Positions 31,376 through 33,775 of a stretch of DNA of 64,000 nucleotides are shown here, piece after piece (the first letter of the stretch is position 1; each line of letters begins with the position of its first letter). The position numbers and the translations under genes are program-made. The stretch lies in NCBI RefSeq assembly GCF_024502345.1, contig NZ_JALDNN010000001.1; one strand, given 5' to 3'. The notes under the pieces are model-generated. The model had not been told where the DNA came from and did no database searches. It saw only the letters and a list, made by a program, of their open reading frames with translations. This DNA comes from Escherichia coli. Lineage in GTDB: Bacteria > Pseudomonadota > Gammaproteobacteria > Enterobacterales > Enterobacteriaceae.

Positions 31376-32161
31376 TTTGCCAATTAGATGTCCAATCATT
31401 TCGTTACATCAAAGTTGTGCTTAATTTTTATTTTATAAGGATAATATGGATATTTTTTCTGGAGAATCAATTCTTTCCCAAGTCCCTGATGTCAATCATT
31501 GGTTAGCTTCTTACGGCTTGAATTCAACTACATCAAGATATAGCAGATATATCTCTTATATTGATGCTTTTTTTGAGTCGAAAGATCCCACCTCATCTGA
31601 TGGAAGAGACAAATTTGATTTATTAACCAAGTCGTATGCAGAAATTATAGAAATAGTCAGCGTTAAAAAAGCGTTTGAACATGAAAGAAGCCCCGGATTT
31701 ATTGAGCGTTTAAGTAAGGTTGTTTCTGGAGTTGATCATGTTGGTATTAAAGAACCCAGTGAGCCAAGGAATTTTCTCTACGAATTACTTATGGCTGCCC
31801 GGCTAAAAAATGCTGGCTTTATTATTGATTTTGACCAAGGAACTGATGTTGTCGCATATGGATTTGGTCGTGCTATTTTCGTTGAATGTAAACGCACAAC
31901 ATCAATAAGAGGGTTCGAATCTAATTTCATTAAAGGTGGAAAGCAATTAGAGAGAAAGTTTAAGAGTACGAAACTTCCCCATTTTATGATTCGGGGATTT
32001 ATTGCTATCGATGTTTTACCATATGTATTGAACGATATTCCTAAATTTGAAATAGATAATGAAATGGAAGCTCGCATTTGTGCCAGGATAGTGATGGAAC
32101 GTTTTAAGCAAGATGCAAGTAGGCATATTAATAAGTATATATCACGTTATGAAAATGTTAG

Positions 32162-33356
32162 GGAAGGTGCGAACAAGTCCCTGATATGAGATCATGTTTG
32201 TCATCTGGAGCCATGGAACAGGGTTCATCATGAGTCATCAACTTACCTTCGCCGACAGTGAATTCAGCAGTAAGCGCCGTCAGACCAGAAAAGAGATTTT
32301 CCTCTCCCGCATGGAGCAGATTCTGCCATGGCAAAACATGGTGGAAGTCATCGAGCCGTTTTACCCCAAGGCTGGTAATGGCCGGCGACCTTATCCGCTG
32401 GAAACCATGCTACGCATTCACTGCATGCAGCATTGGTACAACCTGAGCGATGGCGCGATGGAAGATGCTCTGTACGAAATCGCCTCCATGCGTCTGTTTG
32501 CCCGGTTATCCCTGGATAGCGCCTTGCCGGACCGCACCACCATCATGAATTTCCGCCACCTGCTGGAGCAGCATCAACTGGCCCGCCAATTGTTCAAGAC
32601 CATCAATCGCTGGCTGGCCGAAGCAGGCGTCATGATGACTCAAGGCACCTTGGTCGATGCCACCATCATTGAGGCACCCAGCTCGACCAAGAACAAAGAG
32701 CAGCAACGCGATCCGGAGATGCATCAGACCAAGAAAGGCAATCAGTGGCACTTTGGCATGAAGGCCCACATTGGTGTCGATGCCAAGAGTGGCCTGACCC
32801 ACAGCCTGGTCACCACCGCGGCCAACGAGCATGACCTCAATCAGCTGGGTAATCTGCTGCATGGAGAGGAGCAATTTGTCTCAGCCGATGCCGGCTACCA
32901 AGGGGCGCCACAGCGCGAGGAGCTGGCCAAGGTGGATGTGGACTGGCTGATCGCCGAGCGCCCCGGCAAGGTAAGAACCTTGAAACAGCATCCACGCAAG
33001 AACAAAACGGCCATCAACATCGAATACATGAAAGCCAGCATCCGTGCCAGGGTGGAGCACCCATTTCGCATCATCAAGCGACAGTTCGGCTTCGTGAAAG
33101 CCAGATACAAGGGGTTGCTGAAAAACGATAACCAACTGGCGATGTTATTCACGCTGGCCAACCTGTTTCGGGCGGACCAAATGATACGTCAGTGGGAGAG
33201 ATCTCACTAAAAACTGGGGATAACGCCTTAAATGGCGAAGAAACGGTCTAAATAGGCTGATTCAAGGCATTTACGGGAGAAAAAATCGGCTCAAACATGA
33301 AGAAATGAAATGACTGAGTCAGCCGAGAAGAATTTCCCCGCTTATTCGCACCTTCC
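32162..33356 (+). mobile_element. IS5: IS5 insertion sequence (1195 bp) with a 4-bp TTAG target-site duplication
   Basis: Terminal inverted repeats are GGAAGGTGCGAACAAG (left) and CTTATTCGCACCTTCC (right). TTAG occurs at 32158-32161 and 33357-33360. The element encodes InsH. Confidence 0.95.
32230..33210 (+). CDS. insH: IS5 transposase InsH
   Basis: 326-aa product [35 protein letters not shown]...QWERSH, matching remembered IS5 InsH. Confidence 0.96.
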
Positions 33357-33775
33357 TTAGTGCAGGGGTGGTGATAATGGCGATGATACCTGTTTGGTTG
33401 CGTGATGTTATATTACTTCATGTTAATGAAATAGCTCATGTAATTCCTCCATCAACTAACACAGAAGATGTAGGTGAAGTCATATTTTTAGCCGAGAAGT
33501 TAAGCTATCCGCTACTTCCTGATTTTTAGTGTGAGTTAAAAGTTGATAGATCAAAAGTGTGTTTTTTTAGATTATATACTTGGATCCAAGCAGTGCTAAG
33601 GTTATTTCCTTAGCTCACTCATAACTAAATAGATATTTAGCTAGGGGGGACGATCAAACGTTAGCTCCTAGCTCATAACGGACGAACTGAGATATTTGTG
33701 CCCTGTAGAAGAGCACATCGACAGATAAAATTTCGACTGATACGGGGTTCGCTAACTGATGCCAGACAGGGCCAC

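Follow-up and report, generated by a model that had tools for sequence, protein, structure and literature searches.

The stretch of DNA analysed here, referred to as the window, comprises 64,000 nucleotides of contig NZ_JALDNN010000001.1 of Escherichia coli (assembly GCF_024502345.1). Directly downstream of an integrase gene beside mutS, it carries a gene that has been cut in two by a copy of the insertion sequence (IS) IS5. The gene is a recently IS5-interrupted cargo gene, with a product of 294 amino acids (aa), of an integrative island that lies between mutS and ygbA in several genera of Enterobacterales. The features of the locus are the following.

30095–31375, plus strand: P4-type tyrosine integrase, 426 aa from the start assigned by the Prokaryotic Genome Annotation Pipeline (longest open reading frame, ORF, from GTG at 30074); WP_058690196.1 in four E. 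coli genomes.

31446–32161, plus strand: 5′ part of the interrupted gene, codons 1–238 and two bases of codon 239, encoding the helical domain at the N-terminus and all of the predicted PD-(D/E)xK core (R108, E113, D134, E147, K149).

33361–33529, plus strand: 3′ part of the interrupted gene, from the last base of codon 239 to codon 294 and the stop codon, encoding the modelled β-hairpin 241–266 and the last helix 273–286.

31446–32189, plus strand: the ORF as it now stands, 247 aa, made up of residues 1–238 and nine IS5-derived residues, REGANKSLI.

32162–33356, plus strand: IS5, 1195 bp, with 16-bp terminal inverted repeats (15/16 matches); ends read from the sequence.

32230–33210, plus strand: IS5 transposase gene, 326 aa from MSHQLTF... 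(longest ORF start at 32194), with DDE_Tnp_1 and DUF772 domains.

32158–32161, no strand: left copy of the target-site duplication TTAG; the intact allele has one TTAG at this spot.

33357–33360, no strand: right copy of the target-site duplication TTAG, read from the sequence.

Removal of IS5 and one copy of TTAG in silico joins 31446–32161 to 33361–33529 and gives an ORF of 885 nucleotides encoding 294 aa, in which ...SRYENV reads straight into SAGVVIMAMIPVWLRDV...LLPDF and the stop codon; the insertion point falls within codon 239. A preliminary description of this DNA had proposed the same repair, and its frame and junction stand, the length of about 295 aa given there being corrected to 294. 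It had also seen an E(LL)...D(VV)...ECK arrangement in the N-terminal part, which is present in the repaired protein as E113-L-L, D134-V-V, and E147-C-K149, and had placed the gene in an AT-rich patch beside an integrase. The GC content of the gene is indeed 35.8% versus 51.4% for the window, and the integrase gene ends 70 bp upstream, with no terminator-like site between the two. An AGGA can be read 6 nucleotides upstream of the ATG. A scan of the plus strand upstream of the interrupted gene for promoters and terminators revealed no σ70-like site and nothing beyond shuffle expectation, which is compatible with co-transcription of the integrase and the gene and otherwise uninformative.

The same description had ascribed perfect terminal inverted repeats to the IS5 copy. 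Its position at 32162–33356 between two TTAG copies was read correctly, both copies being visible in the sequence, but the repeats (the start GGAAGGTGCGAACAAG against the end, taken as the complement of GGAAGGTGCGAATAAG) pair over 12 bp and then show a single mismatch, so that 15 of the 16 positions agree. Imperfect repeats of this kind are usual for IS5. The transposase matches DDE_Tnp_1 (9e-36) and DUF772 (4e-21), and the element, present only once in the window, shares 99.7% identity with copies that bear the annotation "IS5-like element IS5 family transposase". IS5 is found in 2875 of the 5426 complete E. coli genomes. The TTAG duplication agrees with the published IS5 target motif, YTAR (PMC5009759). 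In its 1195 bp, imperfect 16-bp repeats, 4-bp YTAR duplication, and DDE transposase, the window copy is like the IS5 of E. coli (PMC5009759), from which nothing notable sets it apart.

The uninterrupted gene is present in other genomes, where the preliminary description had suggested looking for it. Only 4 of the 5426 complete E. coli genomes carry the gene, and in all four it is an uninterrupted 885-nucleotide coding sequence, recorded as the hypothetical protein WP_058690197.1, straight after the same integrase beside mutS. The allele of E. coli ET490 shows 0 mismatches to the repaired window gene in 885 nucleotides, and the reconstruction is therefore not hypothetical; IS5 aside, the ~21-kb island of the window is collinear with that of ET490. 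The identical protein, P0171 in the collection searched here, is encoded on at least 590 contigs, for which Enterobacter, Citrobacter, and E. coli are named as sources. The intact P0171 allele accounts for 1131 indexed blocks of the collection, and near-identical members of its cluster come from Salmonella and Klebsiella. At every Enterobacterales place that was read, mutS is followed by the 426-aa P4-type integrase, the nuclease-like gene, and the same island genes, and the core genes past mutS vary; this constant island order within varying core flanks points to a site-specific integrative element common to several genera.

The repaired protein has no significant match in Pfam, NCBIfam, PADLOC, PHROGs, or a PDB sequence search, and 96 diverse relatives gave nothing significant against Pfam, PADLOC, and PHROGs or in phmmer and hmmsearch comparisons with the PDB. 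A word-indexed search found 22 relatives. The idea that the family is very rare was dropped once an exhaustive profile search returned 2179 cluster representatives at E ≤ 1e-3, and 1120 at E ≤ 1e-10, nearly all of 280–320 aa. The relatives are distributed over Bacillota, Acidobacteriota, and the Gamma-, Beta-, Alpha-, Delta-, and Zetaproteobacteria. Across the 96 members, which underlie all conservation figures given here, R31, R108, E113, D134, and K149 are invariant, E147 (98%), C148, and Q167 are at least 97% conserved, W19, Y35, E66, G95, and S153 reach at least 93%, and G241 reaches 88%.

An AlphaFold2 model built from 21 sequences (predicted local distance difference test score, 89; predicted template modelling score, 0.89) folds first into a helical N-terminal domain (approximately residues 1–100), followed by a PD-(D/E)xK core and a C-terminal part composed of a helix, a β-hairpin, and a further helix. 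The modelled core comprises helix 106–122, strands 126–127, 135–139, and 142–150, helix 154–174, and strand 182–189, and the C-terminal part comprises the long helix 206–231, the β-hairpin 241–266, and the last helix 273–286. E113 is predicted to sit in helix α1, D134 at the start of β2, and E147 and K149 in β3, which is the textbook PD-(D/E)xK arrangement. The model thus contains the α-β-β-β-α-β core fold of this superfamily together with its acidic, (D/E)xK, and α1 glutamate positions; no curated family of the clan was matched significantly in profile searches, and marginal Pfam matches among the 96 members were to Mrr_cat in three, Hjc in one, and HSDR_N in one. Foldseek hits in the PDB and among the BFVD viral models were all weaker than E 1e-3, yet nearly all of them are nucleases. 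The best structural neighbour of the family core is AF1548 of Archaeoglobus fulgidus (PDB 1Y88), an Mrr-type catalytic domain belonging to the PD-(D/E)xK superfamily. With a core-only profile, the D-x12-ECK segment common to the two aligns residue for residue with DVVAERDGERYMIECK of AF1548 (E 0.34, not significant alone). AF1548, whose own function is unknown, differs in having 184–199 residues and in lacking both the helical N-terminal domain of ~100 residues and the C-terminal hairpin and helix.

Taken as a prediction, the nuclease fold is well supported by the invariant residues at catalytic positions and by the topology of the model, in line with the restriction-endonuclease fold that the preliminary description had proposed. 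The family is best described as proteins of ~290–310 aa that form an unnamed branch of the PD-(D/E)xK superfamily and are named by no curated library. Four distant members of 410–423 aa (P0129, P0150, P0152, and P0169) match the profile only at positions ~15–200, that is, over the N-terminal domain and core, and continue with ~200 extra C-terminal residues that have no Pfam match; a scan of the longer relatives (404–423 aa) for informative added domains found none. Sequence comparison of these proteins suggests that the C-terminal module may be exchangeable across the wider family.

Other nucleases that serve as comparators include the catalytic domains of the type IIS and nicking enzymes BsmI, N.BspD6I, FokI, and PaqCI and the defence effectors McrC, Can2/Card1, NucC, SduA, and Cdn1. 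Those nucleases act together with DNA-recognition, CARF/SAVED, ATPase, or methyltransferase modules, either as fusions or as separate partners, whereas the present family is without these and has N- and C-terminal elements of its own. The models of PADLOC-DB v2 gave no match to the repaired protein at E ≤ 1 and only scattered marginal matches (Csx1, PD-T7-5, and CARF_PDDEXK) among the 96 members.

The genomic surroundings of the relatives were compared at 26 loci. BLASTP clustering of all ORFs within 8–10 kb at these loci revealed no conserved partner gene. The commonest neighbour families are HTH_3, integrases, GNAT, ArdC, DUF2971, and resolvase, and a minority of neighbours match defence models (type IIG restriction-modification, RmrA, DpdF, and PDC candidates). 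In Clostridioides difficile, the relative lies between ardA and tcpE/AAA_10 within a conjugative-element gene set (DUF961, FtsK, Rep_trans, ArdA, TcpE, AAA_10), which has the Tn916-type layout. Right after this family member, still between ardA and tcpE, lies a 310-aa ORF without a Pfam match (L005:11096-12028); it is not homologous to neighbours at other loci and is probably unrelated cargo. On a metagenomic contig, a relative sits beside ArdC, three tyrosine recombinases/integrases, RadC, GmrSD, and type I restriction-modification genes. Plasmid carriers of a detectable relative number two, both from Alteromonas, and phage carriers none. The family gene is solitary and occurs in varied and mostly mobile-element contexts. 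These loci agree with the stand-alone cargo gene envisaged in the preliminary description; homologues consistently in non-mobile, housekeeping contexts, which that description had named as evidence to the contrary, are not what is found.

Through the IS5 insertion the protein loses its last 56 residues (239–294), which comprise the strand with the conserved G241, the strand paired with it in the hairpin, and the final helix. Without these two strands the protein is probably less stable, and, judged on the model, the IS5 allele is most probably null. IS5 cannot exert a polar effect on any downstream gene, since the genes that follow are on the other strand in convergent orientation. The event is recent, as neither half of the gene has substitutions relative to the intact alleles, and the exact 247-aa truncated product has been recorded from just two further contigs, both short.

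The same gene is broken independently elsewhere. In the Enterobacter cloacae complex (CP056168.1, L053:4690-5910; also L051 and L052) it is cut by a 1221-bp IS3-family element with TG...CA ends (TGACCTGC...GCAGGTCA) and HTH_Tnp_1 and rve ORFs, which inserted at nucleotides 686–689 of the gene, 27 bp upstream of where IS5 entered the window copy, and generated a 4-bp ATAA duplication. This allele encodes a 236-aa product and is found in 28 indexed blocks. At L052 an IS5-family transposase gene is also present between the truncated ORF and the IS3 genes. N-terminally cut forms of the gene are on record from Salmonella and Enterobacter sichuanensis.

The window has the layout of an E. coli-like chromosome: rpoS, ygbN to ygbI, pphB, mutS (27316–29877, minus strand), the island, ygbA, and the hyp/hyc genes. 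The first integrase of the island matches Phage_integrase (8e-25), Arm-DNA-bind_3 (3e-11), and Phage_int_M (1e-6). The fhlA/ygbA–mutS interval is a documented island hotspot, occupied in Salmonella by Salmonella pathogenicity island 1 (PMC7232297). In the window the island extends over 29878–51050 (~21 kb including IS5) and looks composite, its gene list being taken from the annotation of the collinear island of ET490. One part consists of the first integrase, the interrupted gene, small hypothetical genes, HTH_35, RadC/JAB, DUF2787, a CbtA-family pseudogene, and DUF905; the other consists of a second integrase with AlpA, an N-6 methylase, an S subunit, an AAA ATPase with a hypothetical gene, and a Fic protein. 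The collinear ET490 island has no hsdR in its annotation. There is no tRNA gene at the island junction, and comparison of 29850–30120 with 49500–51200 for direct repeats of an attachment site gave only matches of 10–12 bp, possibly due to chance. Elsewhere in the window, a segment of ~2.9 kb between rpoS and ygbN (17570–20463) is not in ET490; judged by its position, it is the counterpart of the MarR, flavoprotein, UbiD, and EcdD set found beyond mutS in other genomes, and its large ORF appears to be split into 368 aa (18791–19897) and 166 aa (19717–20217), compared with 475 aa elsewhere.

The explanation of these observations that we consider the best, and somewhat probable, is that the gene encodes a partner-less, metal-dependent nuclease carried by mobile elements for use in conflict, of which the IS5 allele is a recent and probably null form. 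The intact protein would be a divalent-metal-dependent endonuclease, acting most likely on DNA and not reliant on a partner gene of its own. On mobile elements it would be directed against phages or rival elements, that is, as a single-gene defence or exclusion determinant, and the conserved N-terminal domain (W19, R31, Y35, E66) may serve in target recognition or self-restraint. IS5 would then have landed at a YTAR site in codon 239, cutting off the C-terminal 56 residues just before the G241 strand. The parts of this explanation differ in strength: that the protein is a nuclease is likely on the strength of the predicted fold, and a role in conflict or defence, which the preliminary description had also raised in the form of a defence or abortive-infection determinant, is a tentative proposal, quite possible at best. 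Several observations weigh against the explanation. In sequence, neither the protein nor its relatives significantly match any nuclease or defence family that has been characterised; the defence-island signal among the neighbours is modest and not quantified; and some copies stand by ordinary genes, directly preceding vanG-like operons or following a gene for a tRNA/rRNA uracil methyltransferase. Instead of bulk DNA, the protein might act on RNA or on a DNA structure. As to the null allele, the truncated product keeps the whole predicted catalytic core.

Other explanations bear on what the nuclease does. The UniRef cluster that contains P0171 is named "DUF1837 domain-containing protein", and DUF1837 denotes HamA, which is the Hachiman nuclease and has the helicase HamB as its partner (PMC12278908, PMC11914072). 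The ExK motif of HamA stands at a similar position, E138/K140 or E150/K152 in DUF1837-only (type I-A) forms (PMC12278908, PMC11914072). HamA alone was without nuclease activity in one study (PMC11914072) and is proposed to require activation by HamB (PMC12278908), and a divergent HamA relative might be inert alone and be activated after DNA damage by an unlinked helicase or host factor, leading to abortive infection. The DUF1837 label was not reproduced by Pfam HamA, PADLOC, or hhalign. The Pfam HamA model (PF08878.16) gave no match to the repaired protein at E ≤ 10, compared with 3.7e-41 for the AbpA control; neither it (at E ≤ 0.01) nor the PADLOC HamA models match any of the 96 members; and the precomputed Pfam assignment is empty for all 65 relatives for which it was consulted. 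With hhalign, the probability was below 1% against both AbpA and an AbpA-domain alignment, a weak test given that this alignment is shallow and of the catalytically dead type I-B, and phmmer of AbpA against the PDB found AbpA alone. The label may stem either from an older, broader model or from another member of the cluster. In contrast to Hachiman (HamA with HamB; AbpA/AbpB in E. coli K-12), the family has neither a helicase partner gene nor a profile link: no HamB-like helicase lies beside the gene in the window, in the enterobacterial island, or at the 26 loci, and a BLAST search, of limited sensitivity, found no AbpB-like ORF. A HamA-like effector is on these grounds improbable. An Mrr-like type IV restriction enzyme, that is, a solitary PD-(D/E)xK endonuclease directed against foreign-modified incoming DNA with the helical N-terminal domain as modification reader, would fit the D-x12-ECK motif of AF1548, the three members with marginal Mrr_cat matches, and the surroundings of the gene, which has no cognate methyltransferase adjoining it in the E. 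coli island and no conserved neighbour. The Mrr_cat matches, however, are below threshold (best E 0.0017), the all-helical N-terminal domain resembles neither a known reader of modified bases nor a winged-helix domain, and there is no indication of modification dependence, so that we regard this assignment as unlikely.

The nuclease might instead serve the element that carries it, by processing DNA in transfer or integration or by striking at the DNA or the defences of a recipient soon after entry by conjugation. The position of the C. difficile copy just after ardA in a conjugative-element gene set is consistent with such a function, as are the ArdC-domain genes found within three genes of the family member at 2 of 25 scanned loci, the short, terminator-free spacing behind the integrase in Enterobacterales, and the presence of XisH, an excision-controlling factor of the same fold, among the structural neighbours. 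Across the loci, however, there is no fixed link to any integrase, relaxase, or transfer gene, many copies stand in contexts without recognisable transfer genes, and islands with broken alleles persist, which argues against an essential element function; we think it unlikely that the gene primarily serves its element. A separate question is whether a cost or toxicity of the nuclease drove selection for the knockout, toxicity being one of the causes raised in the preliminary description, as opposed to the insertion being a neutral hit on a target-rich gene. The IS3-family insertion and the N-terminally cut forms described above would suit selection, and cas genes are reported as a case in which costly nucleases are inactivated by IS elements (PMC10359306). 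Set against this is the predominance of the intact allele, whose 1131 blocks compare with 28 for the IS3 allele and two contigs for the IS5 allele, a more than 10-fold excess. The base composition of the gene also speaks for a neutral hit. IS elements in general prefer AT-rich DNA. The 885 nucleotides of the gene hold 19 YTAR sites, or 21.5 per kb, about three times the average of 6.99 per kb in E. coli coding DNA (PMC5009759). With an AT-rich gene so unusually dense in IS5 target motifs, no selective explanation is needed for the IS5 hit; recurrent disruption fits a carriage cost, the neutral explanation is at least as good, and selection for the knockout is doubtful.

With the partner-less nuclease of mobile elements as the preferred explanation, a broader and more speculative proposal concerns the family as a whole. 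Its more than 2000 sequence clusters of self-contained nucleases might be single-gene anti-phage or anti-plasmid determinants in which the N-terminal helical domain senses a trigger and restrains the nuclease, a partner-less counterpart of HamA-type effectors, and the repeated IS hits might then reflect an autoimmune cost. We put this forward as a conjecture, more apt to fail than to hold.

The IS5 knockout is itself ordinary, and the nuclease family that it hit is large, uncharacterised, and easily tested. The gene is an entry point to a large family that none of Pfam, NCBIfam, PADLOC, and PHROGs names, and two natural loss-of-function alleles, the IS5 allele of the window and the IS3-family allele of Enterobacter, are available alongside a widely recorded intact allele. 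If the protein is not a defence nuclease, the locus amounts to a further annotated IS5 insertion in an island beside mutS. If it is a true stand-alone defence nuclease, it would constitute a new single-gene system and would raise the question of how a solitary nuclease stays harmless to its host.

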